The translations under genes and the position numbers were made by a program. A stretch of 64,000 nt of DNA, from the IMG/VR virus record IMGVR_UViG_3300034062_002027. One strand, written 5' to 3'. Positions 37,441 through 62,459 of the stretch are shown piece after piece; within the stretch, counting starts at the first letter, position 1; each line of letters begins with the position of its first letter. This DNA comes from a virus. The notes beneath the pieces were generated by a model that worked only from the letters and a program-made list of their open reading frames with translations, was not told the DNA's origin and made no database searches.

Positions 37441-42114
<4,674 letters not shown>

Positions 42115-46945: not shown

Positions 46946-47033
46946 AAACCACTCCTATAAAAACGTATGCACACCAAACCACAAGGCCAACAAGAAGGGC
47001 CGCTGCAATAAATGCAACAGCCCAGTCTTTCAT
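46938..47033 (-). CDS. tiny single-TM peptide (31 aa, below ORF-track cutoff)
   Basis: Hand translation MKDWAVAFIAAALLVGLVVWCAYVFIGVVYG. Overlaps the next gene start (ATGGTTGA). Confidence 0.4.
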   Translation of the reverse strand: MKDWAVAFIAAALLVGLVVWCAYVFIGVVYG

Positions 47034-47370: not shown

Positions 47371-47643
47371 TCAGACTCCATACGTAAAGATTGCGATCTC
47401 GTCTGCCACAAAGACCACGTTGATCAAACACCTTGGCGGGAACTCCAAGTGGCTCTTCACCTTGGGCATCCCCGACCTGTAGGTCTGAGCCATCTTGGAC
47501 TCAATAGTGGTGAACTTGTCCGTGTTGTTGAACATCACAAGAATGTCGCCCTGTTTAAAGACGCTCTCAGGCAGCGTCACCACCGTCAGCTCGTCAAACC
47601 GAACGATCTTGCCAAGATGCTCTCTGGACAGGACAAAGTTCAT
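47371..47643 (-). CDS. hypothetical protein (90 aa)
   Basis: Start at MNFVLSRE overlaps the upstream stop (ATGA). The track start at 47724 would overlap the upstream gene. Confidence 0.5.
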   Translation of the reverse strand: MNFVLSREHLGKIVRFDELTVVTLPESVFKQGDILVMFNNTDKFTTIESKMAQTYRSGMPKVKSHLEFPPRCLINVVFVADEIAIFTYGV

Positions 47644-48083
47644 AGCCAAGAAGGTTTGGGGTTGTTGGTCTTCACGGCCTGAATCTGGGCCTGCATGTCC
47701 GTGGCTGCATCGCCACCTTTCCACTGCGCATCCAACTGGTCACCCAAAGCAGGGTACTCGGCGCGGCGCTTGGCGTAGTAGTCAGGAACATCCGGGCGCA
47801 CCACCTCAGACTTGTCGATGTCCACGGTGATTGTCTCGCCCGTCATGGGGTCAAGACTCTCGCGGGTCTTGGGCGTCAGTGCAGCCCACTCAGCCTCTTT
47901 GGCGTCGATCTCGGCCCCCACGCTGGCATTCAAGCCGGAAACGAACTGCGACAGGTCTACGCCAGCAGGGACGTATCGCTGCCAGTCATAGGTCTGTCCG
48001 TTGTGCTCGACCTTCAAAATAGCAATGGCGCGGTCTTCACCTGCCATGCCTGATTGCAAACCTTCAAGGGATACGGTGGTCAT
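47640..48083 (-). CDS. tail-fibre assembly chaperone-like protein
   Basis: The C-terminal RRAEYPALGDQLDAQWKGG...IQAVKTNNPKP resembles the conserved end of phage Tfa proteins. Confidence 0.45.
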   Translation of the reverse strand: MTTVSLEGLQSGMAGEDRAIAILKVEHNGQTYDWQRYVPAGVDLSQFVSGLNASVGAEIDAKEAEWAALTPKTRESLDPMTGETITVDIDKSEVVRPDVPDYYAKRRAEYPALGDQLDAQWKGGDAATDMQAQIQAVKTNNPKPSWL

Positions 48084-49435
48084 TTAACTGCCTCCAATCT
48101 AAAGTTTTTACCCGGATGCTGCCCTTCTACTGGCAGAATTTTAATGTCTTTAAAGCCGACCGCCGTACACAAGTCAGCCAGTGACTTCGGTGTGTAGCCC
48201 CACAGATGTGGAGACAAAGCGCCTTTCTCTTGCGTCTCAGGAGTAATGCGGTCTACGTGAGCGCCATAGATACACATTGCCGTCATGTGCTGATCTGCGC
48301 CGTCTTGTTCAAGGTAGTCTTTGCACAGGCCCGCAAGGTCGGGCGTTTCCATCACCAGCATACCGCCGTCTTTCAGCGTAGCCAGCCACTTCTCTAAGAC
48401 TTTAGGAGCGCGATGCTGGGGGATATGCTCAATCACATGGCTGGCAAATATCTCGTCAGCGCACTGCTCTGGCAAGTCTAACTTCATGATGTCTTGCTTG
48501 ATGTCCGCTGTATCGCTGTGCATATCAACACCAAGGTAGCCTTCAATACGATCACGCCCACAGCCCATGTTGAACTTAATTGGCTGACCTTCTTCTAGCA
48601 GCTTGGCAATGACAGACTTGTAACTACCAGTACCTTCAGGCAGACGATCAGCCCAGCGACGGTCAATAAACTCCTTGTCGTCCAGCGTAAGAGGGCGGGT
48701 GGGCTTGATGTTGGTGTAGTAGTTCTTCAGGTCAACCGAAGGATGCGCGGTGTACATACCTGTCGCCAAGTCCATGTGCAGGCACTGAACGTCCGTGTTC
48801 ACCAGCAGCTTGGTTCCGCGCTTGTGCAGGCGGTGGACGAAAAAGTTGTCCTCACCAATAAACGGGATGACGCCCTTGGGGCCATCAATTTGGCTGCCAA
48901 TGCAGGTAAACGGCAGGTCAGGCGCTTCGTCCTTCATCTTCTGAAGAAGACTGATCGGGATCATCATGACATCCATGCCGGTCTGCCACGCCTCAATCAG
49001 TTGGCCGGGGTCTACGTTGGGGATGGTGATCCAATCCTTGTTGCGTACCATAATCATTGCGTCTGAGCATTTGATGTAGTACACCCCAGTCACCACAGCG
49101 TCAGGGTTCTTCTCTGCTGTCTCGTGCAGCACCTTGAAGCCATCGTAAGGCAAAACGGTGTCCTCACCGATGAACAGCAGGTACTTAGCCCCGGAGGTCA
49201 ATGCCTGCTCAATCAGGTAATTCCGAGCAACGTCAACCTTCTCGCCGCCGATGTGAACAAACCCGTGGGAGAACCCCATTAGGTCAATGTGGAGGCCGTC
49301 GTACCCGTCAAAGTTTTGGGCGGCGGTTTCGGCAAGGTCTCGGCGGGGTTGGGCGATCAGCACATAGGGCGCAATCGACTTGGACTCGTCGTAAATTTCC
49401 TGCATGACGTCAATGATCTTGTCGCGGTTGTACAC
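48080..49435 (-). CDS. fusion of GT-A-type glycosyltransferase (N-terminal) and class I SAM-dependent methyltransferase (C-terminal)
   Basis: The GT part has KYLLFIGEDTVLPYDGF (DxD-like). The MT part has IKFNMGCGRDRIEGYLGVDM...ADEIFASHVIEHI...GGMLVMETP. Confidence 0.7.
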   Translation of the reverse strand: MYNRDKIIDVMQEIYDESKSIAPYVLIAQPRRDLAETAAQNFDGYDGLHIDLMGFSHGFVHIGGEKVDVARNYLIEQALTSGAKYLLFIGEDTVLPYDGFKVLHETAEKNPDAVVTGVYYIKCSDAMIMVRNKDWITIPNVDPGQLIEAWQTGMDVMMIPISLLQKMKDEAPDLPFTCIGSQIDGPKGVIPFIGEDNFFVHRLHKRGTKLLVNTDVQCLHMDLATGMYTAHPSVDLKNYYTNIKPTRPLTLDDKEFIDRRWADRLPEGTGSYKSVIAKLLEEGQPIKFNMGCGRDRIEGYLGVDMHSDTADIKQDIMKLDLPEQCADEIFASHVIEHIPQHRAPKVLEKWLATLKDGGMLVMETPDLAGLCKDYLEQDGADQHMTAMCIYGAHVDRITPETQEKGALSPHLWGYTPKSLADLCTAVGFKDIKILPVEGQHPGKNFRLEAVK

Positions 49436-49453
49436 GGGCTCTCCTTGCTGCGG

Positions 49454-50830
49454 TTAAAATTTATTGAAAAACGGACTTAAAGCATAACCTACTTTTTGCT
49501 GTACGTTGGTGGAGATTGTTTGGCCGACTACACCGTTTCGCGGAACAAAATGTATATCGCCATTAGGCGCAAGGACGCCGCCAGCGTATGCGTCTAATAT
49601 CGTGTAAACCAATGAATAAGTTGAGACTACTCCAGCAGCAGATATTTTCTGACCTCGGTTGGCGTTATAAGAAACAAAATGTATATCACCGTTGGGAGCA
49701 AGGACACCGCCAGCGTATGCCTCACTTCTTGTGTACACTAGCGAGTAGGTAGAGACTACACCCGCTGCTGATATTTTTTGGCCTCTGTTTGCGCTTTGCG
49801 GAACAAAATGAATATCACCATTTGGGGCTAGGACGCCGCCTTCGTATGCGTTTGATGCCGTGTACACTAGAGAGTAAGTTGAGACTACTCCAGCAGCAGA
49901 TATTTTCTGACCTACTACTGCGTCAAGTGGAACAAAATGTATGTCTCCATTTGGGGCTAAAACTCCACCTGCGTATGCTCCGCTTGCTGTGTAAACCAAG
50001 CTATACGTTGAAACAACTCCCGCTGCGGATATTTTTTGACCTACTGCTGCGCCATTAGGAACAAAATGTGTATCTCCGTTGGGAGCAAGGACGCCGCCTT
50101 GGTATGCTCCGTTTGCTGTGTAAACAAGTGAATAAGTTGAAACAACACCGGATGCAGAAATCTTCTGTCCTCGTCTGCCGCTAAGAGGCACGAAGTGAAT
50201 ATCTCCGTTGGGGGCGAGGACACCTCCGCTGTATGCAACTGATGTTGTGTAGACCAGTGAATAGGTTGATACAACTCCAGCAGCAGATATCTTCTGCCCT
50301 CTGTTGGCTGAATAAGGTACGAAGTGTATATCCCCATTAGGGGCTAAGACACCGCCAACGTATGCGCTTGCTGTTGTGTACACCAGTGAATACGTACTGA
50401 CAATCCCACCCACACCATTGTTGTTGAACGGCACACCATTGACCACCCCGGCGTCAAGGTACTTCTTCAGGTTTGTCCACTCCACCAGATTGGTGCCGAC
50501 CGATGAGTTGTCCGCTGTGGGCACTGTGCCCTGAGTAGCATCAGCCGGGTAGGTGGTGATAACGTCTTTATCGCCTGCGCTCCAGTTTACGGCAGCGTTG
50601 CTGTTGCTTGATTCAAGGATCGTGGTGCGTGCCAGCGTTGTGCCAGAGGCGGTGTATGTGCCAATGCCGATTTCCCAGTCCGTACCGTCAGTCACGCTGT
50701 AGTACGTGGTGTTCCCATCCCCAACCACGGAGAAGTCTTGGAACCCATCAGCGGCTGTTCCCAGCGTGTACGTGCCAGTGCCCGTTGTGGTCGTTGTTGT
50801 CTTGACCCGGTCGTTCAGAACCAATGCCAT
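49454..50830 (-). CDS. tail fibre / receptor-binding protein paralogue 3 (seven 42-aa repeats, beta-propeller-like)
   Basis: N-terminus [24 protein letters not shown]..., then 7 copies of [43 protein letters not shown]. Confidence 0.7.
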
Positions 50831-50839
50831 GGTGCGTCC

Positions 50840-52228
50840 TTAAAACTTGTTCAGATAGCTGCTCAGGCAGACATCGGATGGGAAGGGGATGGCGGGGCAG
50901 GTAGAGATTTTTTGACCTAAAGCGGCACTATGGGGGATAAAATAAATATCTCCATTAGGTGAGAGAATGCCGCCAATATAAGAACTTCCTGTTGTATAAA
51001 CTAAAGAATAGGTTGAAACTACTCCTGCTGCTGATACTTTCTGGCCTCTTGCGGCGCTGAGTGGAACAAAATGAATATCTCCATTAGGGGCCAATAAGCC
51101 TCCTTGATATGCGTTTCCAGCCGAATAAATTAATGAGTACGTAGAAACCACACCTGCCACTGATACTTTTTGCCCAATAAGATTATCTGTACTTGGAATA
51201 AAATGAATATCCCCGTTGGGGGCTAGAACGCCACCAGTATAAGCACTAGATGCTGTATAAATTAACGAATAAGTTGAAACAACCCCCGCTGCTGATATTT
51301 TTTGACCAACTTCTGCGCTTTTTGGAACAAAATGAATATCTCCATTGGGTGCTAAGACTCCGCCTTTATAAGCGCCGTTTATTGTATAAACTAAACTATA
51401 AGTAGAAACTACGCCTACTGCCGATACTTTCTGCCCTTTATTTGCATCTTCTGGAATAAAATGTATATCCCCGTTAGGCGCAAGTACGCCGCCAGCATAG
51501 GCGCTTCCCGCTGTATAAACAAGGGAGTATGTAGAAACAACGCCAGATGAATTTACTTTTTGACCTCCGACGGCAAAAGCAGGTACAAAATGAATATCGC
51601 CATTTGCGGCCAATACACCACCTTTATAAGCATTTGCTCTTGTGTAAACAAGTGAGTATGTAGAAACAACTCCAGTTAAAGTGTTTATTTTCTGACCTAT
51701 GTTGGCAGATAGAGGAACAAAATATATATCGCCGTTAGGTGCGAGTACGCCTCCTGTATATGCTCCAGTTGTTGTATAAATCAAAGAATACGTACTAACA
51801 ATCCCCGCTGTATCATTGTTATTAAACGCCACACCGCCGTTCACGCTGAGCTGGAGCTTCTTCTGGAAGTTCTGGAACGCAACGCCGTCCGTGCCAATGC
51901 TGCTGTTGTCTGCTGTAGCGTTTGCCAAGCCCGACGTTTCCGCAGGCAGGGGAATAAATACCGTCTTGTCACCAGCACCCCAGTTGACCAACGCACCGCT
52001 GTTGCTAGATGCAAACACCTGTTGACGGCTCAGGGTCGTGCCCGATACCGTGTAAGTGCCGATCCCAACTTCCCAGTCAATATTGTTTGTAATGGTGTAG
52101 TAGGTTTGGTTGCCGTCGCCGACGTTGGTGAAGTCTTGGTAGCCAACAGAGGCCGCTCCAAGCGTAAGCGTGCCAGTCCCTGTGGTGGTCGTGGTGACCT
52201 GAACGCGATCTTTGAGTAAGAATGTCAT
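50840..52228 (-). CDS. tail fibre / receptor-binding protein paralogue 2 (AT-rich repeat domain)
   Basis: Start at [20 protein letters not shown] (52228). It has seven repeats as in the other paralogues. The repeat-coding part (~50840-51830) is visibly more AT-rich than the surrounding sequence. Confidence 0.7.
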   Translation of the reverse strand: MTFLLKDRVQVTTTTTGTGTLTLGAASVGYQDFTNVGDGNQTYYTITNNIDWEVGIGTYTVSGTTLSRQQVFASSNSGALVNWGAGDKTVFIPLPAETSGLANATADNSSIGTDGVAFQNFQKKLQLSVNGGVAFNNNDTAGIVSTYSLIYTTTGAYTGGVLAPNGDIYFVPLSANIGQKINTLTGVVSTYSLVYTRANAYKGGVLAANGDIHFVPAFAVGGQKVNSSGVVSTYSLVYTAGSAYAGGVLAPNGDIHFIPEDANKGQKVSAVGVVSTYSLVYTINGAYKGGVLAPNGDIHFVPKSAEVGQKISAAGVVSTYSLIYTASSAYTGGVLAPNGDIHFIPSTDNLIGQKVSVAGVVSTYSLIYSAGNAYQGGLLAPNGDIHFVPLSAARGQKVSAAGVVSTYSLVYTTGSSYIGGILSPNGDIYFIPHSAALGQKISTCPAIPFPSDVCLSSYLNKF

Positions 52229-52230
52229 GG

Positions 52231-53616
52231 TCAGAACTTGTTCAAAAATGAGCTGAGGCACACGCCCAAGCCCAAAGGTTGACCGGGATTTGTGGAGATT
52301 GTTTGGCCCCTATTGGCAACGTCTGGAACAAAGTGTATATCACCGTTGGGAGCAAGAACACCTCCAGCGTATGTGCTTGTTGCTGTGTAGACGAGAGAGT
52401 ATGTACTTACAACCCCAGAGGCAGATATTTTCTGGCCTACGTTGGCACTAGCCGAAACAAAATGTATGTCTCCATTTGGGGCTAGGACGCCGCCTTGGTA
52501 TGCGGATGTTGTTGTATAAACTAAAGAGTAGGTTGATACAACCCCAGATGGAGATATTTTTTGACCTTGGTTGGCGCTATAAGGCACAAAGTATATATCT
52601 CCGTTAGGAGCAAGCACGCCACCTTCGTATGCGGATGTTGTTGTATAAACTAAAGAGTAGGTTGATACAACACCTGTAGCTGAAATCTTTTGTCCAACAG
52701 CAGCATTTCTCGGGACAAAATGAATGTCTCCGTTGGGGGCGAGAACCCCACCAGCGTATGCGGCTGATTCTGTATAAACAAGAGAATACGTTGAAACAAC
52801 ACCCGCAACAGATATTTTCTGTCCTCGGTTGGCATTATACGGAACGAAATGAATATCACCGCTAGGTGCAAGGACGCCGCCTTGGTATGCGGTTGTTGTG
52901 GTGTAGACAAGCGAATACGTACTCACAACTCCAGAGGCAGAGATTTTCTGGCCTCTGTTTGCGCCTGAAGGAATAAAATGAATATCTCCGTTAGGGGCAA
53001 GCACCCCGCCTTGGTATGCGCCTGTTGATGTATAAACCAATGAATAAGTAGAAACTACTCCAGCAGCGGATATCTTCTGGCCTCTGTTGGCGCTACGAGG
53101 CACAAAGTAAATATCCCCATTAGGGGCAAGTACGCCGCCAACGTATGCGCCCCCAGCATTTGTATAAACCAAACTGTAAGTGCTGACGATTCCGTTCGTG
53201 CCGTTGTTGTTGAACGTCTGCCCACCTACAACACCTTGGTTTAGCGCAGCCTGCAAAGCTGACCAGCCTGCCAGATCGGCGCCAATGTCCGAGTCGTCGC
53301 AAAAAGGAATGCCCGGTTGAGTGACCGCCGAGGGTTGAGCGCACAGCACGTCCTTGGTTCCAGCACCCCAGTTCACCAGAGCGTTGGAGTTGGATGAGGC
53401 GTAGACCTGATCTCGGCTCAAGGTGGTTCCTGACGCTGTGTACGTCCCCAGACCTGTTTCCCAGTTGATTTGGTCTGTGATCAGGTAGTACGTGGTGTTG
53501 GCGTCGCCAATGGCGGAGAAAGCCTGATACCCAGTTGCAGCAGCGCCGAGCGTGAGTGTCCCCGTACCAGTCGTCGTGGTTGTGGACTTGACGCGGTTTT
53601 TGAGGACGAGAGCCAT
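52231..53616 (-). CDS. tail fibre / receptor-binding protein paralogue 1
   Basis: Start at [20 protein letters not shown] (53616, TAATG overlap with the upstream stop). Seven repeats. Confidence 0.7.
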   Translation of the reverse strand: MALVLKNRVKSTTTTTGTGTLTLGAAATGYQAFSAIGDANTTYYLITDQINWETGLGTYTASGTTLSRDQVYASSNSNALVNWGAGTKDVLCAQPSAVTQPGIPFCDDSDIGADLAGWSALQAALNQGVVGGQTFNNNGTNGIVSTYSLVYTNAGGAYVGGVLAPNGDIYFVPRSANRGQKISAAGVVSTYSLVYTSTGAYQGGVLAPNGDIHFIPSGANRGQKISASGVVSTYSLVYTTTTAYQGGVLAPSGDIHFVPYNANRGQKISVAGVVSTYSLVYTESAAYAGGVLAPNGDIHFVPRNAAVGQKISATGVVSTYSLVYTTTSAYEGGVLAPNGDIYFVPYSANQGQKISPSGVVSTYSLVYTTTSAYQGGVLAPNGDIHFVSASANVGQKISASGVVSTYSLVYTATSTYAGGVLAPNGDIHFVPDVANRGQTISTNPGQPLGLGVCLSSFLNKF

Positions 53617-54653
53617 TACGAGACGTTTCCAGTGATGACACAAACTGTGCCAGAAATGAACAAGATGTTGCACACGCCACGAGTAGACAGCGTAACAGAT
53701 GCCACATCAGTGTCTGTCCCGGCAATGTAGGCTGTGGTGATCGTGCAAGTAACCGTGATGTCACCAGTGGTGTTGTTGAACACCAGCACCGCATCACCAG
53801 CCGCAAAGGTTGCGTCAGGGATTGTGATTGAGCCACCAGTGCCCACGCCAACCACCTCACCAACATCGCCAACAGCCAACGAGTAAGAAGTGGTCTTGTC
53901 TGTCACATATGGGATGTTCTTGTAGCCGACCAGATTGGTGCCATCAACAGTTGTTGAACTGGCCGACCCCACCTTGATTAGTTTCCCGGTCGTGCCATCA
54001 AACGCTACAAGGACGTTGTTCGTGGCGGATGCCGGTCCCACCACGTCGCCCGCCCCTACCCCAGTTGCAGCAATCGTAATAGACCCATCGCCATTGGTAA
54101 TCGCAATATTAGCGCCTTGAGTCAAAGTGGCTTTTGTCAATCCGCCCGCTGCGTTACCAATCAATAGTTGGCCGCTAGTGTAGGTAGACTCGCCTGTTCC
54201 ACCATTAGCTTCAGGTAATACGCCACTTACGTCCGAAGTAAGCACCACTGGGTTGCTGACGATTTTGACGAAATCAGAGCCGTTCCACGCCACCAGCGCC
54301 CGTGCGCCTGCGGGAAGCGTTACCCCAGTCGTTGGGCCTGCACCACGGATGACGATAGAGCCTGTACCCGCGTTGATCACGATGTAGGGCTTGCTCTGAG
54401 CAGGCGCTGTAATGTTGCGTGTCGTGGCTCCGTTACTGGCTGTCCAACGAATAATCGCCTGACGGGCTTGGTTGGCCGCAAGGACTGTGGTGGTCAGCGT
54501 AACGTCTGCGTCCGCGCTCAGGGTAGTTGTACCCGCAACGGCGGAGTCCACCAGCGAGGTGATCGAGTCGTTGACAACGTCGCCCCATGTGCCGTCAAGT
54601 TCGCCTTCAACCGGCAGTGCCAGTCCAAGCAGCGTGGTATTTCCTGTTGTCAT
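53616..54653 (-). CDS. tail fibre/spike protein (345 aa)
   Basis: The N-terminus LLGLALPVEGELDGTWGDVVNDSITSLVDSAVAG is a common fibre N-terminal signature. The remainder is G/T/V-rich and beta-like. Confidence 0.6.
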   Translation of the reverse strand: MTTGNTTLLGLALPVEGELDGTWGDVVNDSITSLVDSAVAGTTTLSADADVTLTTTVLAANQARQAIIRWTASNGATTRNITAPAQSKPYIVINAGTGSIVIRGAGPTTGVTLPAGARALVAWNGSDFVKIVSNPVVLTSDVSGVLPEANGGTGESTYTSGQLLIGNAAGGLTKATLTQGANIAITNGDGSITIAATGVGAGDVVGPASATNNVLVAFDGTTGKLIKVGSASSTTVDGTNLVGYKNIPYVTDKTTSYSLAVGDVGEVVGVGTGGSITIPDATFAAGDAVLVFNNTTGDITVTCTITTAYIAGTDTDVASVTLSTRGVCNILFISGTVCVITGNVS

Positions 54654-54662
54654 TTACGACTC

Positions 54663-55412
54663 CTAAGTAACAACATCAACCCATGATGTTGACTGTGTAT
54701 TGGTGATATTTTGCCAGTTGGCGTTTTGAATGTCATCCACTGGCTCCCAGAACCTTCTGCCTGATTGCGTTTCGGTGATTGCCGCCGTCTCTGACCGACT
54801 CACGTTGTACGCCGTAATTGCAAATTCCTGTGCTGTCAGCGCCGCCAACTCGTTGATTGAGGCAACAAACGCGACAGCCGCTTCTTGTGTGGCCGTTGCC
54901 TCTGTGGTCTCATCAACCGATACCAAAAACTCAGCCGCGCCCTCTTCCGCAGAAGTAATTCCCACGGACTCGTCAACCGACTCATTGAAAGCGGAGCCAA
55001 CAATTTGATTGTCAGTAACCCCAGCGCTCTCATTTACCGATAGGGCAAACGTGGCTGCAATAATTTGATCTTCTGCAATCGCCACACTTTCGGAAACTGC
55101 AAAAGCAAATGTGGCTGCAACCGCTTGGGATTCAGCAAGGCCCGAAGTTTCCGACACAGAGACTGTATACGCCACTACGGCAGTTTGGTCTTCTGCAATA
55201 CCCGCACTCTCCGCAACAACAGCCGAAAACCCCACGGCAACAGACTGATCTTCTGTAGCTGCAACGCTCTCAGCAACTGACAGCGCAAATGTAGCAACAA
55301 CTGTCTGAACTTCTGTGATTGAGACGGACTCAGATACGCTGTCGCTGAAAGCAGTAATACCGCCCCAGCCACCAGCGCCCCAAGTTCCTATGCCCCAAGC
55401 ACGTCCGGCCAT
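54663..55412 (-). CDS. structural protein with ten tandem 20-aa repeats
   Basis: After MAGRAWGIGTWGAGGWGG there are ten units of the type F-xxSVxES-xxIxEDQ-xxxAx, with an aromatic residue every 20 aa (coding ~54750-55349). Confidence 0.6.
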   Translation of the reverse strand: MAGRAWGIGTWGAGGWGGITAFSDSVSESVSITEVQTVVATFALSVAESVAATEDQSVAVGFSAVVAESAGIAEDQTAVVAYTVSVSETSGLAESQAVAATFAFAVSESVAIAEDQIIAATFALSVNESAGVTDNQIVGSAFNESVDESVGITSAEEGAAEFLVSVDETTEATATQEAAVAFVASINELAALTAQEFAITAYNVSRSETAAITETQSGRRFWEPVDDIQNANWQNITNTQSTSWVDVVT

Positions 55413-55414
55413 GA

Positions 55415-55978
55415 TTAGGTCAGAGTTGCAGAGTAGCTGACAGCAATTGAGTCACCGTTTACAACGGCCTTCGAGCTGGAAAAATCGCCAGCCGAAAACA
55501 ATGTGCCCGTGGTGTTGTCAATTGTTGCGCTGCCACCAATGTTGATGAAGCAGCCAGCCACCGTGCCTGTCGATGTGATCGAGAAGGTGGAAGCCGAAGA
55601 TGTGGCCTTGCTACCAGCAGCGGCAGCGCTAAACGATGGAGTCTTGCGGTTGCCAGAGTATGTGGGGGCGTTAGCCAGACCCACTTCCAGCCAGCTTGCG
55701 TGCGAGGCTTGGGTGTCCGCTACGTCGGCAGTGCCAACGCCTTTCAAGCCCATCACCACAGCGCCAGCAGCAGAGTTGCCAAGGATGGTGTCCAGCGTCA
55801 GATTCTTGCCCACGGTTGTCACCAAGTTCTTGATGTCGTCTTCCCACTTGACGTTACCCTGCGCGTCGTAGCAGACAGCGTGGTACGAGCCTTGAATGCT
55901 CATCTGGTCAGCGGGTTTTGTGTTGTAGCTGCAAGCAGCCTCCACCTTGTCAGTGGCATTGATGCGGTCTGTGGTCAT
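55415..55978 (-). CDS. virion structural protein (187 aa)
   Basis: ORF in the tail/connector module, S/T/G/A-rich and beta-like. Confidence 0.5.
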   Translation of the reverse strand: MTTDRINATDKVEAACSYNTKPADQMSIQGSYHAVCYDAQGNVKWEDDIKNLVTTVGKNLTLDTILGNSAAGAVVMGLKGVGTADVADTQASHASWLEVGLANAPTYSGNRKTPSFSAAAAGSKATSSASTFSITSTGTVAGCFINIGGSATIDNTTGTLFSAGDFSSSKAVVNGDSIAVSYSATLT

Positions 55979-55987
55979 GGTGACTCC

Positions 55988-56401
55988 TTAAATTGAACTG
56001 CGAATGAGTGCCGTCGTTGCAGTGTTTTGCGGCATGGTGATGGTGAAGCTGGCCGATGTCTTGTCCGAACCAAAGTCCAGCACGGCGATAGACCGGTTGG
56101 CCTTGCTTGCGTTGTAGATCAAAGCGCAGCGTGCAGTTACCGAAGCCCCAAACGCCACGTTGTTGAAGTTGACGTAGGCCGTGTAGCCGGAGGAGCTGAT
56201 AGTCACGCCGGTCAAGGTTACGCCGCCAGCCACATAGCCTGTACCCGTTACTTCGTTGGAAGCTGAATACGCAGTGGTGTCCTCGTTGAGGTTTGCATTG
56301 GCCGTGTACAGCGCAATACGCAGAGTGTCCGTGAGCAGATTGTGAATGCCCTCGTACAACTCCGCCTTGAAGCTGGTGGTCTGTGTCTGAACGATGCTCA
56401 T
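55988..56401 (-). CDS. virion structural protein (137 aa)
   Basis: ORF coupled (ATGA) to the upstream gene. Composition is similar to the 187-aa neighbour. Confidence 0.5.
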   Translation of the reverse strand: MSIVQTQTTSFKAELYEGIHNLLTDTLRIALYTANANLNEDTTAYSASNEVTGTGYVAGGVTLTGVTISSSGYTAYVNFNNVAFGASVTARCALIYNASKANRSIAVLDFGSDKTSASFTITMPQNTATTALIRSSI

Positions 56402-57057
56402 TGGACCGCCGTTCTAACTTGGCCGTTGCGGTACGCGTCACCGCGCTGCTTGCCGTCTGCCAAGTTCTTGTACAGGGCAACTGCCTGAACGTACCGTTCT
56501 TGGTACAGCTTGACCATGTCGGGCTCACCCTTCATGTAGGTCAGCGCCTCGTTCATGGTGCCGTACAAAAGAACAGAGTCAAAGTTGTCGCCCAGCCAAG
56601 TGCGGCCATCAGCAGCGTCCACAATCGACTCAGGGTAGGCGTAGTAGTGCAGCTCAGCGTTGTAAGCGGCATCAGGTGTCGGGCCGAGGATCAACGTCAG
56701 CTCGTCTTCATTGTCCGAGCGAGGACCGAAGATGGCGTAGTGCTTGGGCTTACCTGTGGTAGCCGGATTGGGGTACGCCTGCCGGATGAAGTTCACATCC
56801 TTGTCCAGCAGATATTCATACGAGCCGCCAGCAGCAGGGTAGATCGCCAAGCTGAACACGGACAAGAAGTCCACCGGGCACTGAAGGTACTTGTTCCCCG
56901 CCGTCAACGATCCAGTCACGTTCTTGCGCTGGTTGGCAGGCTGAGCGACGTTGAAGATGCGCTGCTCCGCTTGCCGGATGAACGTGTCCATGTCTACCGT
57001 CGAGAACACGTTCTCACAGTAGTTGGAAACAGCGGTGACCAGTTCGTTGTACGTCAT
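56398..57057 (-). CDS. virion structural protein (219 aa)
   Basis: ORF in the connector/tail module. No enzymatic motif. Confidence 0.5.
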   Translation of the reverse strand: MTYNELVTAVSNYCENVFSTVDMDTFIRQAEQRIFNVAQPANQRKNVTGSLTAGNKYLQCPVDFLSVFSLAIYPAAGGSYEYLLDKDVNFIRQAYPNPATTGKPKHYAIFGPRSDNEDELTLILGPTPDAAYNAELHYYAYPESIVDAADGRTWLGDNFDSVLLYGTMNEALTYMKGEPDMVKLYQERYVQAVALYKNLADGKQRGDAYRNGQVRTAVQ

Positions 57058-57060
57058 TTT

Positions 57061-57327
57061 TTACGCCATCGGGCCTCGGGCCATGATGCCTTTGGTAGCA
57101 GCGCCAGTGCCACGGATTTTGATGCCGCTGGTCTTGGTGCCCATGCCGTCAGGCTTGTTGCTGATGCCGCCCACGCTCATATTTACCGTGTCGGCATTGC
57201 TGCGGTTTGGCTCTTTACCGGGGCTGCTGGATGCTTTGACAACCTTGCCCTTCATGGTGTGAGGTTCTGCGTAGACGCTGGCTTGACCAACTTCTTTACC
57301 CATCATTTTGTGACTGAATTTAGCCAT
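57061..57327 (-). CDS. small basic virion protein (88 aa)
   Basis: Start at MAKFSHKMMGKE (AAGGAAA RBS). The C-terminus GIKIRGTGAATKGIMARGPMA resembles the basic protein family at 58.7-60.7 kb. Confidence 0.5.
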   Translation of the reverse strand: MAKFSHKMMGKEVGQASVYAEPHTMKGKVVKASSSPGKEPNRSNADTVNMSVGGISNKPDGMGTKTSGIKIRGTGAATKGIMARGPMA

Positions 57328-57337
57328 GTCGTTTCCT

Positions 57338-57721
57338 TCAAGATATTGCAACTGTACCAACAAACGCTGTCGCTACCAAGTAGTTCTGCGTCAGGGCTAC
57401 GTCAAAAAAACTGGCCCCACCCACAGGGTTCCAGCCCCACTGAATGTCCCTTGAGCCGCCCGACAAGTTGCCCTCGTCGTTTAAACCAGAGGTCACGTAG
57501 GTTGTGTCCCTGCGTGGGTTCCTAAGCGCCTGTGGGTCATCCACAGGGAACGTGCCAAGCATCAACTGCGGCTGATCAGGGTCCCAGCACTCCGGGCACA
57601 CCAGCAGCTCGTACTTGCGCTGCTTGATGATCTCTGTCTTGAGCTGCTTGAGCTTAAACTGCTGCCCGCAGCGGTCGCACATGGCAATCGCTTTGTGACC
57701 TGCTGCAAACCGGTTTGACAT
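57338..57721 (-). CDS. zinc-ribbon virion protein (127 aa)
   Basis: CDRCGQQF...CPECWDP. Coupled to the upstream gene. Confidence 0.5.
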   Translation of the reverse strand: MSNRFAAGHKAIAMCDRCGQQFKLKQLKTEIIKQRKYELLVCPECWDPDQPQLMLGTFPVDDPQALRNPRRDTTYVTSGLNDEGNLSGGSRDIQWGWNPVGGASFFDVALTQNYLVATAFVGTVAIS

Positions 57722-58425
57722 CAGTAGCCACCGCTTCCTATGCGAGTGGCGCGTGGCACAAACCTGACTGCAGCCTTCTCACGGTCTTCGGACGAGGCGA
57801 GGTCCCAAGCTTCGTCGTATTGTTGCTTCAAAATTGGCAGGCGGTCCATCGACCCCGGAATTTTCAGCGCAAGGTGGTAAGCCAGCCCAGCCGTCATAGC
57901 CTCATAGAAGCGAAAAGGCATATCCATTGTGTTTACACCGCCCCCAGCGTCTTGCATGCGGCGCAGACGCCAGTACACAAACACGTAAGGCTGCGAGTTG
58001 TCTGGAACGGGCCAGACGTTTATTCGGGGGGAGTCAGTCAAGCGTTCAATCCAAACCTGAATTGGACGGGCTTGCTGGAGCTTGTTAGGAATCGTGGCGT
58101 ATGTAGAGACACTGATCCGGGTGATGGTCAGGTCTGCTTGTGTTGAAACGTTACCCGCGCCCGTGCGGATGACGTGCTCCAAAAGGTCCACTGTGTCCGC
58201 AGGAAGGTTGTACGTTGCTTGGCCGGGGGTCAAATTAATCGACCCCTGCTCATACGTGAACATGTTTAAACCACGATTTGCCCACTGGGCGAACATCAGG
58301 TTCATGGATCGACTGGCCGTGCGTAAGTCGTAGCCCGTGCGCAACTCACCACCAGCGCGTTCAAACGCTTCCTCCACGATCTCCGTGAGGTCCATGTTAA
58401 ACGCTGCTGTGCCTGATGTTGCCAT
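57721..58425 (-). CDS. putative head-tail adaptor/connector protein (234 aa)
   Basis: The N-terminus FNMDLTEIVEEAFERAGGELRTGYDLRTASRSMNLMFAQWANRGLN is a pattern I recall from podovirus adaptor proteins. Positioned between the head and tail genes. Confidence 0.45.
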   Translation of the reverse strand: MATSGTAAFNMDLTEIVEEAFERAGGELRTGYDLRTASRSMNLMFAQWANRGLNMFTYEQGSINLTPGQATYNLPADTVDLLEHVIRTGAGNVSTQADLTITRISVSTYATIPNKLQQARPIQVWIERLTDSPRINVWPVPDNSQPYVFVYWRLRRMQDAGGGVNTMDMPFRFYEAMTAGLAYHLALKIPGSMDRLPILKQQYDEAWDLASSEDREKAAVRFVPRATRIGSGGY

Positions 58426-58658
58426 TATCTAAAACCTGCTGTTTTCTTTGCGATGGTCTTGGGCTGGGCCACAAACTGTTTACCCGCCGCCTTGCCAGCA
58501 CGTTTGGCTTTTGTGGTGGCTGCATACTCTGCGGGGCTGAGCGATTTTATCGCCTTCTCCGGTAAATACCGCTCACCAGTTTTTGAAGACGGCTTCCCAC
58601 TCTTGGTGCGCCATTTCTGGTCGCCCCAGTCTTTGAGGGATTGCTGGGGAGCCTTCAT
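58425..58658 (-). CDS. small basic protein (77 aa)
   Basis: K/A-rich. The motif GERYLPEKAIKSLSPAEYAATTKAKRAGKAAGKQFVAQP is recognisable as a recurrent small phage/bacterial protein. Confidence 0.5.
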   Translation of the reverse strand: MKAPQQSLKDWGDQKWRTKSGKPSSKTGERYLPEKAIKSLSPAEYAATTKAKRAGKAAGKQFVAQPKTIAKKTAGFR

Positions 58659-58763
58659 TTAGTCGTCCGCCAGCAGGCCAGCTTCTTCCAATTCCAAATC
58701 CTGCAAGACTTCTTCAGTCCCACAAGTGCAAGGGCCGTCTTCATGTACGGCGCAATCTTCCAT
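58659..58763 (-). CDS. tiny acidic peptide (34 aa), doubtful
   Basis: Hand translation MEDCAVHEDGPCTCGTEEVLQDLELEEAGLLADD. It fills the gap between two genes exactly. Confidence 0.3.
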   Translation of the reverse strand: MEDCAVHEDGPCTCGTEEVLQDLELEEAGLLADD

Positions 58764-58767
58764 ATGA

Positions 58768-59043
58768 TTAGTCACGATAACTACCTCCTGCGGCTTTGTA
58801 TTTCTTTGCTACAAGCTGAGCTTTACGGGCTGACCACTGGCCTGCGCCGGTGCCCTGTGTTGCGGCAGCTTTCACTTGGCTGACAATCCGCTTGCGCAGA
58901 TCGGGCTTGGTGTAATTGCCAGCCGCATTGACTTTACCGCCTTCAGCATATTGCGTGAAGTTGGTGTTGTCCCGGCGAGCTTTACGCACGCCTTTGGGCA
59001 TCTTTGAGGGGAGGATGTCTCCCATGCCGCGACTGGCTCTCAT
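58768..59043 (-). CDS. small basic protein (91 aa)
   Basis: YAEGGKVNAAGNYTKPDLRKRIVSQVKAAATQGTGAGQWSARKAQLVAKKYKAAGGSY. Confidence 0.5.
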   Translation of the reverse strand: MRASRGMGDILPSKMPKGVRKARRDNTNFTQYAEGGKVNAAGNYTKPDLRKRIVSQVKAAATQGTGAGQWSARKAQLVAKKYKAAGGSYRD

Positions 59044-59044
59044 G

Positions 59045-59275
59045 TCAGCACATCCCGCCGCCAGCCATTTTGATCATCTTGCCCTTGGTGTGGGCCTTGG
59101 TGACGCAACCATCGGCGCGAGTAACACTGCCACCACTGGCGTACTTCTTTGGCTTGCGTGGCTTGGGAGCCGAGCCGCCATCGATGTCTTGAGGAGGAGG
59201 CATGCCGGAGTCTTCTGTGTAAACACCATCTTGCAGACCACGAGGGGGTTTTTTCTTCATCATCATGTCGTTCAT
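59045..59275 (-). CDS. small basic protein with ADG..KGK C-terminal module (76 aa)
   Basis: KKYASGGSVTRADGCVTKAHTKGKMIKMAGGGMC. Confidence 0.5.
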   Translation of the reverse strand: MNDMMMKKKPPRGLQDGVYTEDSGMPPPQDIDGGSAPKPRKPKKYASGGSVTRADGCVTKAHTKGKMIKMAGGGMC

Positions 59276-59284
59276 GTCAGCTCC

Positions 59285-60295
59285 TTAACGCATTTTGCAG
59301 CGTGTCTTACCTTTGATTGCAGCACCGTCTGCGCGTTTTGATGCGCCAGACACAGAACCACCAGACGCCATTTTCTTGATTGGCATGGCTTTTTTCACAG
59401 AGCCACCCTTCTTCAAAGCGAAATCTTTACCGCCAAGGCCTTTTCTTACTGCGCCTGCGGCCGCTTCGTAACCGGGAGAGCTTTCATCAAGCCCGTAACG
59501 TTTGGCGTTTTCTTTGAGCATCTCACTCTTGCGAGCTTCGGCTCTTTCTGCGCGTTTGCGTGCAACTGCGCCAGCTTTGTCGTAAGTCAGGCGCTTTGTT
59601 GGCGCTGGAAGCGCCTCTTGGGAGTACTTTGCCATCTTTGGCGTGGCAAGTTTCTTTGCCAGAGATTGCAAAGCTTTTAAACCAACGCCACCAGCCATAG
59701 CAGATGCGGTTTCTAAACCTTTTTGGGTTTGCTCTGCGGTTGGCTTAATTGAATCAATTTCTTGTTCAATTTGTTGTTTTTTGGTTAGCTTAGCTGGCGG
59801 CTTGTAGTTGGCAAGCTCGTCTGCCGTTGGGCCGCCACTACGTTCGTAGGTTTTGGTGGTTGGCTGCGCCCCCGTCATTGGGTAAGCGGAAGTCTTGGCA
59901 GGAGAAGATTTGGCTGGCGCGGACTTAGTTGGCGCAGAGGGTTTGGCTGCCTGAGTGTTTACACGAGGCTTTTCTACCTTTGGGCCAGCAGGAACCGGAA
60001 TGCGCTCTCGTGCATTTGCCGCTTCCAGCTCATCCATTGCTGCGGCGGCAGGCATTGCTTGCGCAGAAGCCGTTGGACGGGTTACCGGAGTTGCAGCCAT
60101 AGTCTCTACTGGAGTGCGTTCTGCCTTGCCCCGGCCAGCACCAAAACGACGATAGGCCTCAGAGCCCTCGTCATCAATGTTGCCCATGCGAAGGCGTTCA
60201 AAGAAGCCAACCTTGTCCTCTTTCGAGGCTTCCAGCCCACGGTCTTTGTCAGACATGCCGCCCTCTTGAAAGCGTTTGATCTTCTTTGTCGCCAT
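59285..60295 (-). CDS. basic A/K/P-rich head protein (336 aa) with the same C-terminal module
   Basis: KRFQEGGMSD at the N-terminus, and KKMASGGSVSGASKRADGAAIKGKTRCKMR at the C-terminus. Confidence 0.55.
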   Translation of the reverse strand: MATKKIKRFQEGGMSDKDRGLEASKEDKVGFFERLRMGNIDDEGSEAYRRFGAGRGKAERTPVETMAATPVTRPTASAQAMPAAAAMDELEAANARERIPVPAGPKVEKPRVNTQAAKPSAPTKSAPAKSSPAKTSAYPMTGAQPTTKTYERSGGPTADELANYKPPAKLTKKQQIEQEIDSIKPTAEQTQKGLETASAMAGGVGLKALQSLAKKLATPKMAKYSQEALPAPTKRLTYDKAGAVARKRAERAEARKSEMLKENAKRYGLDESSPGYEAAAGAVRKGLGGKDFALKKGGSVKKAMPIKKMASGGSVSGASKRADGAAIKGKTRCKMR

Positions 60296-60304
60296 GATTA
60301 TTCC

Positions 60305-60718
60305 TTAGCAGGTCTTGCCGCCACGGGCCATTTTGATCATAGCGCCCTTGGTTTTACCCTTGGATGCAATGCCGTCTTTGCTTGGGGCTGCGGTACGCAC
60401 TGAACCCATCTTGGTTGTGCCGACAGAGCCGCCAGCCTTCAAGCCTTTGTGAGCCTTAGAAGCTGGCATACCGGCATGCTTAGCCAAAGCGGGTGGCATA
60501 CCTTTTTTAGCCATGTCGGCTTTAGCCATGCCACGACCTTCTTTTTTCATCATCATGTTTTCGGATTTCATATCGCCACCTTTAGAAAATTTGCGGCCCT
60601 TGTCCGCGTTGGAGAAATCTTTGCCCACAGATTGTGGGACGCCTGCCTTCTTAGCAAACGCTGGGTTGTTAGCCACCGCCGCCATGAAATTATGTTGTTT
60701 CTTGCTAACTGAGGGCAC
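60305..60718 (-). CDS. basic protein (137 aa) with the same C-terminal module
   Basis: N-terminal MPSVSKKQHNFMAAVANNPAFAKKAGV. C-terminal KDGIASKGKTKGAMIKMARGGKTC. Confidence 0.55.
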   Translation of the reverse strand: MPSVSKKQHNFMAAVANNPAFAKKAGVPQSVGKDFSNADKGRKFSKGGDMKSENMMMKKEGRGMAKADMAKKGMPPALAKHAGMPASKAHKGLKAGGSVGTTKMGSVRTAAPSKDGIASKGKTKGAMIKMARGGKTC

Positions 60719-60953
60719 TGCGATGCTCCTTCATAAAGTCATCAATCTTGCTCTCAAGACGGTCCAACCGGGCCAGAACACGATTAATATCGCCATGCAC
60801 ATCTGCCTTGGTCACATACTTCTCAGCATTCTCTTCGCGGGTCTTGCTCAACAAGATGCTCAGGCGCTTCACTTCATCGTGAGACACCTTTACCCAAAAT
60901 AGCAACGCCGCTGACGCAAACGACAACAGCACATTCCAAGCCATCAGTTCCAT
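60705..60953 (-). CDS. membrane-anchored coiled-coil protein (82 aa)
   Basis: N-terminal TM helix (AWNVLLSFASAALLFWV), then a helical region. Confidence 0.45.
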   Translation of the reverse strand: MELMAWNVLLSFASAALLFWVKVSHDEVKRLSILLSKTREENAEKYVTKADVHGDINRVLARLDRLESKIDDFMKEHRSALS

Positions 60954-60954
60954 G

Positions 60955-61209
60955 TCAGCACTTCCATCGCGCCAGTGACGCGGCTTTACGAGTGGGCTTG
61001 CCCTTCTCGTCTTTCATTGGGCCCGGCATGCCCGACATGCGTGCGCAGAACGAATCCTTGCGCTTGCCACCCTGCGGTTGCGGGGCCTTCAGGTTGCTGC
61101 CGGTCGCAGCGTTATATTTCTGGCGTCCTTTGGCAGTCAAGCCCGCCCCCTTAGAGGCAGGCAGCTTCTCGCCACGACCGATTGCAAGGGATGGGGTCTT
61201 CTTAGCCAT
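60955..61209 (-). CDS. small basic protein (84 aa)
   Basis: GLTAKGRQKYNAATGSNLKAPQPQGGKRKDSFCARMSGMPGPMKDEKGKPTRKAASLARWKC is a recurrent small phage protein pattern. Confidence 0.5.
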   Translation of the reverse strand: MAKKTPSLAIGRGEKLPASKGAGLTAKGRQKYNAATGSNLKAPQPQGGKRKDSFCARMSGMPGPMKDEKGKPTRKAASLARWKC

Positions 61210-61951
61210 TGACGACTTTCAGTTTGGGTGTGCAGTGCTGCTCGATCAGCGGCATCAGCACAGCTTCTTTAAAGCTGCGGTGGTATTCCTGAGAGCCAAC
61301 GTGCGGCAGGGTAATCTCTGGGTCAACAAACACCGTAAAGCCATCTGCGCGTGCGCGTTTGCAGAACGTGTAGTCCTCGCCAACGTACTGCCCATTGCTC
61401 AACTCAAAGTCGAACATGGCGCTTTCGTCGCGGTTGTACACGTCATTAAAGTAAGTCCACTCGGGGTGACCCGCAACCATCTTCTCCAGCACATGGCGCT
61501 GGATCATCATAAAGCCTGTAGCTACGTTCTCGACCCGCAGCATGCCGTGCGGATCAAACTCGAGTGTGTTGGCCTCGTCGATGTAGATGTCCAAGAAGAA
61601 CTTGCGGTCTTCAGCTCTGCGGGTGTACATCCCGGCTGTAATGTCCTTGCCAGTGCTCAGCGCCAGCAGGCGAAGCACAGACTCTGCGTCCACCACGATG
61701 TCGGCATCGACGAACAACATGTCCGTGCAATCCGACTCCAAGAAGTTGGCGACCAGAATGTTTCTGGCCTTGGTGATCAAAGAGCAGCCCGACAGATGCG
61801 ACAGTTGCACCTGAACACCAAACTGCGAAGCCTTGACCACCAGATCGGCCAAGGCAAACGAAGTCTTGATGTTCAACTTGCCGTCGTAGGCGGGTATCGC
61901 AATCATCAGTTTGCGACCTGCAACATCCATGGGGCGTGTCTCTTCAGCCAT
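61202..61951 (-). CDS. GT-A-type glycosyltransferase (249 aa)
   Basis: MIAIPAYDGK...ARNILVANFLESDCTDMLFVDADIVV (DxD) ...GEDYTFCKRA. The start at 61951 overlaps the upstream stop by 8 nt. Confidence 0.65.
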   Translation of the reverse strand: MAEETRPMDVAGRKLMIAIPAYDGKLNIKTSFALADLVVKASQFGVQVQLSHLSGCSLITKARNILVANFLESDCTDMLFVDADIVVDAESVLRLLALSTGKDITAGMYTRRAEDRKFFLDIYIDEANTLEFDPHGMLRVENVATGFMMIQRHVLEKMVAGHPEWTYFNDVYNRDESAMFDFELSNGQYVGEDYTFCKRARADGFTVFVDPEITLPHVGSQEYHRSFKEAVLMPLIEQHCTPKLKVVNG

Positions 61952-62459
61952 AGTAAATCTGCGCTGCGTCAATGCCGCTCATGTAGGAATAAATTCCATT
62001 TACCGCCAACACACCTTCGCCGGGGATAAGCGGAGCATTTTGAAACTCGTCGGAAGAGTGGGTTTCATAGGTCAACAGCCAACGATTTGCACCACTAACA
62101 TAAATTGCTGCTGGAGTAGCTGTGATGTTTCCAGTGTTGATGTCTGTGAGTGTAAATGTGTCAGCATCTACTCTGGTAATGCTGTAGTTCCCATCGGTGG
62201 CAGCACCGCCAGTGCCAGTGTCAAAGTGAATGCCTACAATGTTTCCGGTAGCAAGACCGTGAGCTGTTTTGGATATTGTTACCGTGGTTCCAGAGCGACC
62301 GTATGTAACGCTTGAAGTTACTGGGGCTGAGGTTGAATCAAACAAAACCAAAGTCCCGCTACCACCAAAAAAAGAAACGCCTTTAACGCGGTTTCTTCCA
62401 AGAACAAAAAACCCACTCTGGTTTAGATGTCCTTGTTTTACGTCAGTTTGCATGCCCAT
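61944..62459 (-). CDS. head-module structural protein (171 aa)
   Basis: ORF between the capsid-proximal genes and the glycosyltransferase, T/G/S-rich and beta-like. Confidence 0.5.
   Translation of the reverse strand: MGMQTDVKQGHLNQSGFFVLGRNRVKGVSFFGGSGTLVLFDSTSAPVTSSVTYGRSGTTVTISKTAHGLATGNIVGIHFDTGTGGAATDGNYSITRVDADTFTLTDINTGNITATPAAIYVSGANRWLLTYETHSSDEFQNAPLIPGEGVLAVNGIYSYMSGIDAAQIYYG

Follow-up and report, generated by a model that had tools for sequence, protein, structure and literature searches.

The window analysed here, a 64,000-nucleotide (nt) stretch of viral DNA (IMG/VR record IMGVR_UViG_3300034062_002027), is an almost complete, circularly permuted phage genome. Its late operon encodes two soluble, metal-dependent glycosyltransferases (GTs) of the GT-A fold, with activities predicted from motifs and structure models. 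The first, GT1, is the product of open reading frame (ORF) 61202-61951 (minus strand) and sits among the head genes, next to a hypervariable protein that may lie on the head surface. The second, GT-MT, is the product of ORF 48080-49435 (minus strand) and joins a GT domain to a methyltransferase (MT) domain. With the tail-fibre genes upstream of it and p147, the 147-amino-acid (aa) product of 47640-48083 (minus strand), it makes up a fibre / GT(+/-MT) / p147 cassette. Judged from sequence, the head-module GT with its variable neighbour and, above all, this mobile cassette are the objects of interest. The best reading of the folds, motifs and synteny is that the phage glycosylates its own virion proteins and optionally methylates the sugar, as a sequence-only reading of the same DNA had proposed. 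We hold it tentatively, at slightly below an even chance. The proposal gains from the fixed place of GT1 in the head module and from the fibre module around GT-MT; the rival idea that host glycans are modified keeps its place as an unlikely but serious alternative.

GT1 had been called a GT-A glycosyltransferase with a DAD motif, and the structure model, the Foldseek matches and the invariant motifs agree on this.

61202..61951, minus strand: GT1, a predicted soluble 249-aa GT-A-fold glycosyltransferase, with DAD at residues 82-84, GEDY at 191-194 and PH at 216-217

The true start is an ATG, and the relatives of GT1 are 245-250 aa long. Its motifs are IPAYDG (residues 19-24), VDADIV with the DAD (81-86; nt 61694-61711), GEDYTF (191-196) and LPHVG (215-219); among 38 relatives of 57-93% identity, D82, D84, G191-E192-D193-Y194 and P216-H217 are invariant. 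GT1 matches phrog_1574 (8e-36) and two PHROG glycosyltransferase families, and its Pfam matches to Anp1, GT8 and Glyco_trans_2_3 are all sub-threshold (Anp1, 21.4 bits vs a gathering cut-off of 28.8). The AlphaFold2 model (predicted local distance difference test, pLDDT, 89) retrieves GT-A enzymes with Foldseek, best the GT domain of human LH3, COLGALT1 and mimivirus R699 (E 3e-8 to 7e-7), then GlfT2, SpsA, TarS/TarP and the ppGalNAc-transferases. At TM-scores of ~0.45-0.5 and identities of 10-14%, this modelled similarity establishes the fold and not the acceptor. GT1 is without a transmembrane segment (Kyte-Doolittle maximum 1.34 in a 19-residue window, the check used throughout). Some of its homologues are named 'NDP-sugar pyrophosphorylase family protein' by JGI, and Foldseek ranks pyrophosphorylases lower. 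We rejected that identity on the GT2-type IPAYDG, DxD, GED and His motifs and on the absence of a GxGTR pyrophosphorylase loop in GT1.

The neighbours of GT1 in the window are the following.

60955..61209, minus strand: DUF6321 protein; its start and the GT1 stop share 8 nt
61944..62459, minus strand: p171, of a hypervariable family directly upstream of GT1; candidate head-surface protein and candidate acceptor
62502..63035, minus strand: p177, the protein after the capsid gene, 50% identical to HTVC023P gp41 and present in only some relatives
63182..64000, minus strand: major capsid protein gene, truncated where the window ends; Phage_capsid_4 / Mu gpT-like

Both enzyme genes lie on the late strand, as first read: the minus strand from ~64000 down to 26800 holds the late genes. 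The claim that GT1 is translationally overlapped with its neighbours in the head block also stands, with 8 nt shared between its start and the p171 stop and another 8 nt between its stop and the DUF6321 start. A strong terminator-like hairpin with an 11-bp stem (63165-63139, minus strand) directly follows the capsid gene. This arrangement is widespread among relatives. DUF6321 adjoins GT1 in 78 of the 79 assessable loci from a set of 80 found in IMG/VR (L097-L176; GT1 identity 60-98%), and the capsid gene ends at most 2 kb upstream of GT1 in 46 of 50. The order of capsid, variable genes, GT1 and DUF6321 is preserved over GT1 identities of 59-98%; two relatives whose GT1 is 59-63% identical share the longer order of terminase, portal, capsid, one or two small genes, GT1, DUF6321 and adaptor.

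The gene directly upstream of GT1 encodes 86-247 aa and is hypervariable in length and sequence even where GT1 is 95-98% identical (L097-L176). Nearly all of its distinct versions keep a C-terminal PGEGIL followed, after ~20 aa, by FYG, and this end overlaps the GT1 start. Such a sequence pattern would fit a head protein that is exposed at the surface and subject to diversifying selection, with a conserved enzyme encoded next to it.

GT-MT had been described as a GT-A-like domain fused to a class I S-adenosylmethionine (SAM) methyltransferase, a description that a two-domain model, the motifs and marginal Pfam matches bear out.

48635..49435, minus strand: GT domain of GT-MT, residues 1-267, a minimal GT-A domain
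48080..48625, minus strand: class I SAM methyltransferase domain of GT-MT, residues 271-451 plus stop, with motif I NMGCGRD, HVIEHI and LKDGG

The protein has 451 aa and a GTG start with an AAGGAG ribosome-binding site. Its GT half carries AQPRR (residues 28-32), GEDTV (90-94), GEDNFF (194-199) and CLHMD (218-222), and residues Q29, P30, R32, R71, Y85, D92, G194-E195-D196 and H220 are invariant across the family. The GEDT motif picked out at first reading is genuine and represents one form of the family pattern [GD][ED]D[TV]: in the acidic motif G90-E91-D92 the first Asp is replaced, and D92 is invariant. Degenerate catalytic motifs in the GT domains had been named as something that would refute the first proposal; in the relatives of each enzyme, the motifs are invariant. 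Pfam Glycos_transf_2 is sub-threshold on this half (E=0.024; 15 bits vs a gathering cut-off of 23.3), and the protein matches phrog_34859, a glycosyltransferase family, at 7.6e-8. The MT half carries NMGCGRD (289-295), HVIEHI (333-338) and LKDGGML (354-360), with NMGCGRD, GVDMH and DEIFASHVIEH conserved in the alignment. It passes the cut-offs of Methyltransf_23 (27.4 bits vs 27) and Methyltransf_11 (22.7 vs 21.2) marginally, and a homologue, P0244, clears both.

In the model of GT-MT (pLDDT 90, N-domain above 90) two domains meet at residues 268-270. The best PDB match of the N-domain is the GT-A protein A197 of Sulfolobus turreted icosahedral virus (STIV; E 5e-8, TM-score 0.68 on target), and the remaining Foldseek matches are class I SAM methyltransferases (E 1e-7 to 1e-6). 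A sequence profile also found STIV A197 (E 4e-4), the sole GT at E < 0.001. GT-MT is without a transmembrane segment (Kyte-Doolittle maximum 1.14). By model and Foldseek the structural family of both GT domains is thus GT-A, and their sequences place them in divergent GT-A families outside the curated Pfam families. Catalytic roles for the GED and His motifs of GT1 and GT-MT are assigned by analogy.

A profile search of 1.84 billion representative proteins found the GT domain joined to various partners (Methyltransf_11/23; a Methyltransf_24 / rhamnosyl O-methyltransferase-like domain of the CmcI type; an N-terminal methyltransferase) or to none. A tblastn search of GT-MT against GenBank phages gave no match; the enzyme is therefore carried by no cultured phage. 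In one genome per species from 185,579 bacterial and archaeal species, a pattern-based scan that divergent members can escape returned two matches to this GT family, one of which, on a contig of 1.8 kb, has a propeller gene upstream. On this one scan, the family looks essentially phage-restricted.

The gene stands in the following cassette.

52231..53616, minus strand: fibre paralogue 1, 461 aa, N-terminal anchor domain and 7-bladed beta-propeller
50840..52261, minus strand: fibre paralogue 2, 473 aa as called, anchor domain and 7-bladed beta-propeller
49454..50830, minus strand: fibre paralogue 3, 458 aa, a Vgb-lyase-like 7-bladed beta-propeller ending in FFNKF
47640..48083, minus strand: p147, a 147-aa soluble protein without annotation, whose start overlaps the GT-MT stop (ATGA)
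46997..47023, minus strand: terminator-like hairpin with an 11-bp stem, which would end the fibre / GT-MT / p147 transcription unit

The order in the window is the three fibre paralogues, GT-MT and p147. The paralogues are 67-73% identical to each other, and each has an N-terminal anchor domain and seven 43-aa blades like those of virginiamycin B lyase, with a 129-nt period in the DNA. Eighteen nt separate the stop of paralogue 3 from the start of GT-MT, and GT-MT overlaps p147 by 4 nt. No strong terminator was found between the fibres and position 47023; the hairpin there lies after small genes 3' of p147 and overlaps a called 31-aa ORF that is perhaps not real.

An IMG/VR pattern search with the GT-domain alignment returned 80 loci on contigs of 4.5-238 kb, with GT domains 60-94% identical; they are not independent of one another and group into 16 clusters at 80% identity. 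In 72 of the 73 loci with enough upstream sequence, the end of a propeller gene lies 3-75 nt upstream of the GT, and 14 of 15 assessable clusters have a propeller upstream of the GT. The start of a p147 homologue lies -9 to +51 nt from the GT stop in 70 of 78; p147 is missing in some module-bearing loci (L046-48). The methyltransferase partner is of the Methyltransf_11/23 type in 56 loci and of the Methyltransf_24 type in 11, and 13 have none. Distant examples keep the fibre junction: in L012 (49% identity), L013 (beside a T4 gp13-like gene) and L014 a propeller gene ends just upstream of the GT, and L177 shares the arrangement seen in these three. Upstream of the module of L012, a 1025-aa protein (L012 3-3080) has long collagen-like GTS/GTT triplet repeats. 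L008, with a related backbone and a Peptidase_S74 fibre, shows no GT-MT in a 20.7-kb stretch that stops inside the fibre genes, which makes it a weak comparison.

The third member of the cassette, p147, had been taken for a Tfa-like chaperone. Pfam, PHROG, PDB and homologue searches gave no Tfa or Caudo_TAP support for this, and we rejected it. Of the earlier placement of GT-MT, the three fibre paralogues on one side are real, and the Tfa-like label for the gene on the other lacks support. p147 has no transmembrane segment (Kyte-Doolittle maximum 0.79), no Pfam family at E <= 0.1, no PDB relative and only PHROG matches of unknown function. Its 565 homologues are all unnamed, and those among the matches listed have 130-148 aa.

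Two tracts had been put forward as substrates. The first was the poly-Thr at the N-termini of the fibres. The anchor domain that contains it occurs only in podovirus-sized contigs, is common to phages without GT-MT (CRP-6, Venkman and HTVC023P gp58) and is absent from the module-bearing propeller proteins of L012. This speaks against the poly-Thr as substrate: by sequence, it is the propeller domain, not the poly-Thr, that travels with the GT. The second was a Thr-Pro tract, which is real as a feature (residues 1162-1483 of a 1557-aa protein with RTX-like Gly/Asp repeats encoded at 37441-42114, minus strand); nothing links it to either enzyme. It spans 322 residues (148 Thr, 130 Pro) at nt 37666-38631 and is built of 6- to 30-nt DNA repeats.

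How might the two enzymes serve the phage? Both would use host nucleotide-sugars and act in the cytoplasm on newly made virion proteins, before assembly. GT1 would most likely glycosylate the hypervariable head-surface protein encoded upstream of it (the p171 family), or the capsid. GT-MT would be the enzymatic member of a portable receptor-binding module composed of a 7-bladed propeller fibre, a GT with or without MT, and p147. Its GT domain would transfer a sugar onto the fibre, or onto p147 in the role of a protein associated with the fibre, and the fused methyltransferase would then O-methylate that sugar with SAM. The likely benefit is that an exposed receptor-binding surface would be shielded, stabilised or tuned. 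The fusion had been read as a sign of a methylated sugar; fusion to two unrelated methyltransferase families, or a stand-alone GT, fits such a product. Because the same GT joins two unrelated methyltransferase folds or none, methylation would be an optional accessory step on the GT product. In its most specific form the proposal is that a three-gene receptor-binding cassette moves between aquatic phages of podovirus size (~60 kb) and very large ones (up to 238 kb), that its enzyme (methyl-)glycosylates the receptor-binding protein itself, and that a second, independent GT serves the hypervariable head-surface protein. We regard this form as possible rather than probable.

Several observations weigh against virion glycosylation. 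No acceptor site was found, and the C-termini of the capsid protein, p177 and p171 are not Ser/Thr-rich extensions, unlike the glycosylated mycobacteriophage proteins. Propeller fibres of Cylindrospermopsis phages, with the same fold and a SLNKF end, occur without this GT, which is therefore not needed for the propeller fold; a locus search with a single Cylindrospermopsis propeller sequence returned one close relative. The GT1 relatives of the T4-like phages Cr30 and DLP6 lie in replication modules, and that of HTVC023P has a GT-B enzyme as its neighbour and lies away from the capsid. The MT domain has its nearest relatives inside giant multi-GT2 proteins, which we take to be cellular polysaccharide synthases. 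In L081 (IMGVR_UViG_3300032241_000811, a T4-like phage on a 109.6-kb contig), the single locus that lacks a propeller, GT-MT24 and p147 adjoin a GDP-mannose-dehydratase-like enzyme, a GT2 and other sugar genes. From its gene content this island looks like polysaccharide-type or glycan-pathway chemistry, and it shows p147 tied more tightly to the GT than to the fibre. Finally, an enzyme that masks the receptor would also be expected to stay closely linked to a receptor-binding protein.

Other distant relatives of GT1 do lie among structural genes. In a P22-like podovirus (L004 7959-9236, MW202691.1) the homologue comes directly after the coat gene, and in a cyanomyovirus it lies amid genes for tail-collar fibres, accompanied by a further GT and a sugar epimerase. 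The scattered positions of these distant relatives indicate, therefore, that the head-module place is a trait of this clade and not of the whole family. The L004 homologue has 425 aa, and its C-terminal extension matches Methyltransf_4 weakly and below threshold (E 0.0035); it may be another GT-MT fusion. L081 also has a GT1-like gene, upstream of its sliding-clamp gene.

Masking of the receptor is the main rival, unlikely in our judgement but serious. GT-MT, with p147, would modify a host envelope glycan from the cytoplasmic side, capping with a methylated sugar the O-antigen, capsule or lipooligosaccharide unit that the propeller fibre binds. Superinfection would be blocked, or progeny kept off infected cells and debris, and fibre and enzyme would have to match; the strict co-inheritance of enzyme and receptor-binding domain is what this predicts. 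The multi-GT2 relatives of the MT domain, the fibre-less sugar island of L081 and the rhamnosyl O-methyltransferase/CmcI type of one methyltransferase partner point the same way. Soluble peripheral GTs and a terminal methylation (WbdD) are known to act on undecaprenyl-linked O-units in the cytoplasm, which also counts for masking, as does the filing of aquatic-phage GTs as lipopolysaccharide- or DNA/protein-modifying auxiliary genes (PMC9599517). Against masking, these late genes are coupled in translation to structural genes and have no flippase and no membrane GT partner among their neighbours, and in our one scan cellular genomes and prophages almost entirely lack the GT family. Among the window ORFs scanned, with some small ORFs outside the scan, there is no integrase/recombinase, DNA polymerase, hydroxymethylase or thymidylate-synthase homologue and no sugar-nucleotide enzyme; the unassigned ORFs are all of 320 aa or fewer. 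Seroconversion of the Gtr type was rejected, as no membrane parts were found and, in that scan, no integrase. Masking also leaves the fixity of GT1 in the head module unexplained.

A non-virion acceptor that is not a host envelope glycan either is improbable. It could be p147, if this serves in assembly without being structural; a protein of the host cytoplasm, modified by a toxin-like GT-A action; or a small molecule or a lipid. Host proteins are known to be glycosylated by some cytosolic GT-A enzymes, among them the clostridial toxins, Lgt and NleB; p147 has no recognisable family and stays with the GT in L081 even where the propeller is gone. A host-takeover enzyme would normally be early, however, and not encoded behind fibre genes, and p147 is lost in the module loci L046-48. 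In L012, p147 is fused to CBM_5_12 modules, a hint that it may be exposed and bind carbohydrate rather than act in the cytoplasm.

There is also the view that these are unlinked auxiliary genes whose position is meaningless, GT1 being perhaps pyrophosphorylase-like or a DNA glycosyltransferase. We find this very improbable. It could draw on the JGI label and lower-ranked Foldseek pyrophosphorylases mentioned above, and on the Cr30 and DLP6 relatives among replication genes. The GT2-type motifs of GT1, with no GxGTR loop, stand against it, and random moron insertion would yield nothing like adjacencies of 78/79, 72/73 and 70/78. The T4 DNA glucosyltransferases are GT-B enzymes and require hydroxymethylated bases. 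DNA glycosylation was rejected on the GT-A fold of both enzymes and on the lack of a hydroxymethylase among the ORFs scanned. Virion-protein glycosylation thus remains the reading that we prefer.

The phage itself has the small and large terminase, portal and a scaffold-like gene at the left end of the window on the minus strand, and its capsid gene runs off the right end. A megablast search of 24 kb of the window against GenBank phages gave no match. Its large terminase is 50-58% identical to those of phage DSL-LC04, 023Pt_psg01 and the pelagiphages HTVC027P and HTVC023P, and has 45% identity with a Synechococcus/Planktothrix phage group. On this evidence the phage, which is uncultured, counts as a relative of the HTVC023P-type podoviruses. 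Public metagenomes hold hundreds of close relatives, on 60-68-kb contigs. The early region codes for a primase-helicase, a Sak annealing protein, RusA, a PD-(D/E)XK nuclease and a CobS/CobT-like AAA+/VWA pair.

Several other genes of the window are of separate interest. After the DUF6321 gene comes a series of small Lys/Gly-rich proteins (58425-60718, minus strand; 77, 91, 76, 336 and 137 aa), several of which end in a shared GGSV..ADG..KGKT.GKMIKMAGGG; from this shared end, they may be a paralogous basic family that is head-internal or DNA-associated. A 249-aa acidic protein (54663-55412, minus strand) with no family match consists almost wholly of ~21-aa repeats (..ESV.ITE.Q.V.A.FA.SV..), and its gene lies just upstream of a 345-aa fibre-like gene. 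The lysis cassette (45042-46485, minus strand; a GH108 + PG_binding_3 endolysin and a GTA-type 3TM holin) occupies the middle of the structural operon, with the fibre module on one side and the genes for internal virion proteins on the other. The late operon also contains two inserted HNH endonuclease genes (42443-43063 and 45476-46042, minus strand); the endolysin and holin genes flank one of them, and the other comes just downstream of the gene for a 635-aa virion structural protein. At 26805-33716 (minus strand) a 2303-aa polyvalent virion protein has ART-PolyVal (ADP-ribosyltransferase) and LPD38 domains. On the plus strand, 13650-14432 matches phrog_2954 'ferrochelatase' (1.5e-15) and HTVC023P gp67, neighbour of 2OG-Fe(II) oxygenase genes. 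With an HxD...H-like motif seen by eye and no Pfam or PDB match, its product may be oxygenase-like rather than a ferrochelatase. We had considered it as a prolyl/lysyl hydroxylase partner for the GTs, and dropped the link on the PHROG match being its only family-level support.

To our knowledge, virion glycosylation in tailed phages has been demonstrated in a few mycobacteriophages only, and our literature search found no paper on a propeller-fibre / GT module. The two GT families described here have a linkage to structural genes strong enough for direct testing. If the cassette form of our reading holds, we know of no earlier example either of a tail-fibre glycosylation system or of phage virion glycosylation outside the Actinobacteria. 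Glycosylated and methylated receptor-binding proteins in abundant environmental phages would affect sequence-based prediction of host range and change the interpretation of fibre structures. Recombinant production of such proteins would need the enzyme partner, and ideas about surface shielding or tuning would need revision. If receptor masking is right instead, a fibre-linked exclusion system in a lytic phage would be a novelty too. On both readings, the fibre / GT(+/-MT) / p147 triad can serve as a marker for annotating receptor-binding modules in metagenomes.

There are several known systems with which these enzymes can be compared. STIV A197 (PDB 2c0n) is the closest structure to the GT domain of GT-MT and is itself a minimal viral GT-A enzyme, of ~200 aa; it differs in that it comes from an archaeal virus, has no methyltransferase domain and shares 18% identity. 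We know of no proof of its acceptor either. The top structural matches of GT1, the collagen hydroxylysine GTs LH3, COLGALT1 and R699, have generic GT-A enzymes close behind them. Human LH3 and COLGALT1 are GT-A enzymes that glycosylate proteins; no collagen-like repeats were found in the window.

Systems that act on host glycans share some features with the cassette. Seroconversion by temperate phages uses GtrA/GtrB/Gtr-type proteins, or O-acetylases encoded next to tailspike genes in P22- and Sf6-like phages. As here, a glycan-modifying gene stands beside the gene for a receptor-binding protein, with its specificity matched to the receptor. Those systems have a flippase and membrane GTs beside int/att and belong to lysogeny, whereas the proteins here are soluble and their genes late and coupled. 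The O-antigen-capping and GT2-MT polysaccharide enzymes (WbdD-type) resemble GT-MT through the multi-GT2 proteins that hold its nearest MT-domain relatives. Unlike the large cellular polysaccharide synthases, the GT domain of GT-MT is a distinct family, almost confined to phages in our one scan.

Two systems act on virion proteins. A064R of PBCV-1 (Paramecium bursaria chlorella virus 1) has two Rha-transferase domains and a methyltransferase, and builds the methylated rhamnose terminus of a capsid glycan (PMC9614988). Like GT-MT, it is a viral, soluble cytoplasmic enzyme with a DxD GT-A domain and a class I SAM methyltransferase in one polypeptide. The methyltransferase of A064R methylates the sugar just added, on a virion protein, as is proposed for GT-MT. 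A064R also differs in coming from a eukaryotic giant virus and in its three domains, N-linked glycans and early expression, and GT-MT is tied to a tail-fibre gene, unlike A064R. A064R is absent from the best 50 PDB and BFVD structural matches of GT-MT, so no specific homology was found. In mycobacteriophages, glycans are carried by capsid and tail-tube proteins (Freeman 2023, as cited in PMC12619734), with Che8, Corndog and Myrna given as examples (as cited in PMC12619734 and PMC11256854). As far as these citing accounts go, that system is like ours in having phage-encoded GTs, a tailed phage and virion structural proteins as targets (here proposed). It differs in its actinobacterial hosts and in the placing of the glycans at the C-termini of capsid and tail-tube subunits, for which no such Ser/Thr-rich extension is present here. 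The Che8 GT (Q855A2) is a weak structural match, at rank 21 with a TM-score of 0.26-0.30. We know of no report of a fibre-linked module or a methyltransferase fusion for the mycobacteriophage system. Sequence and model comparisons do not support membership of either system. By analogy of function, PBCV-1 A064R is the closest counterpart, and the mycobacteriophage system is the closest among the tailed phages.

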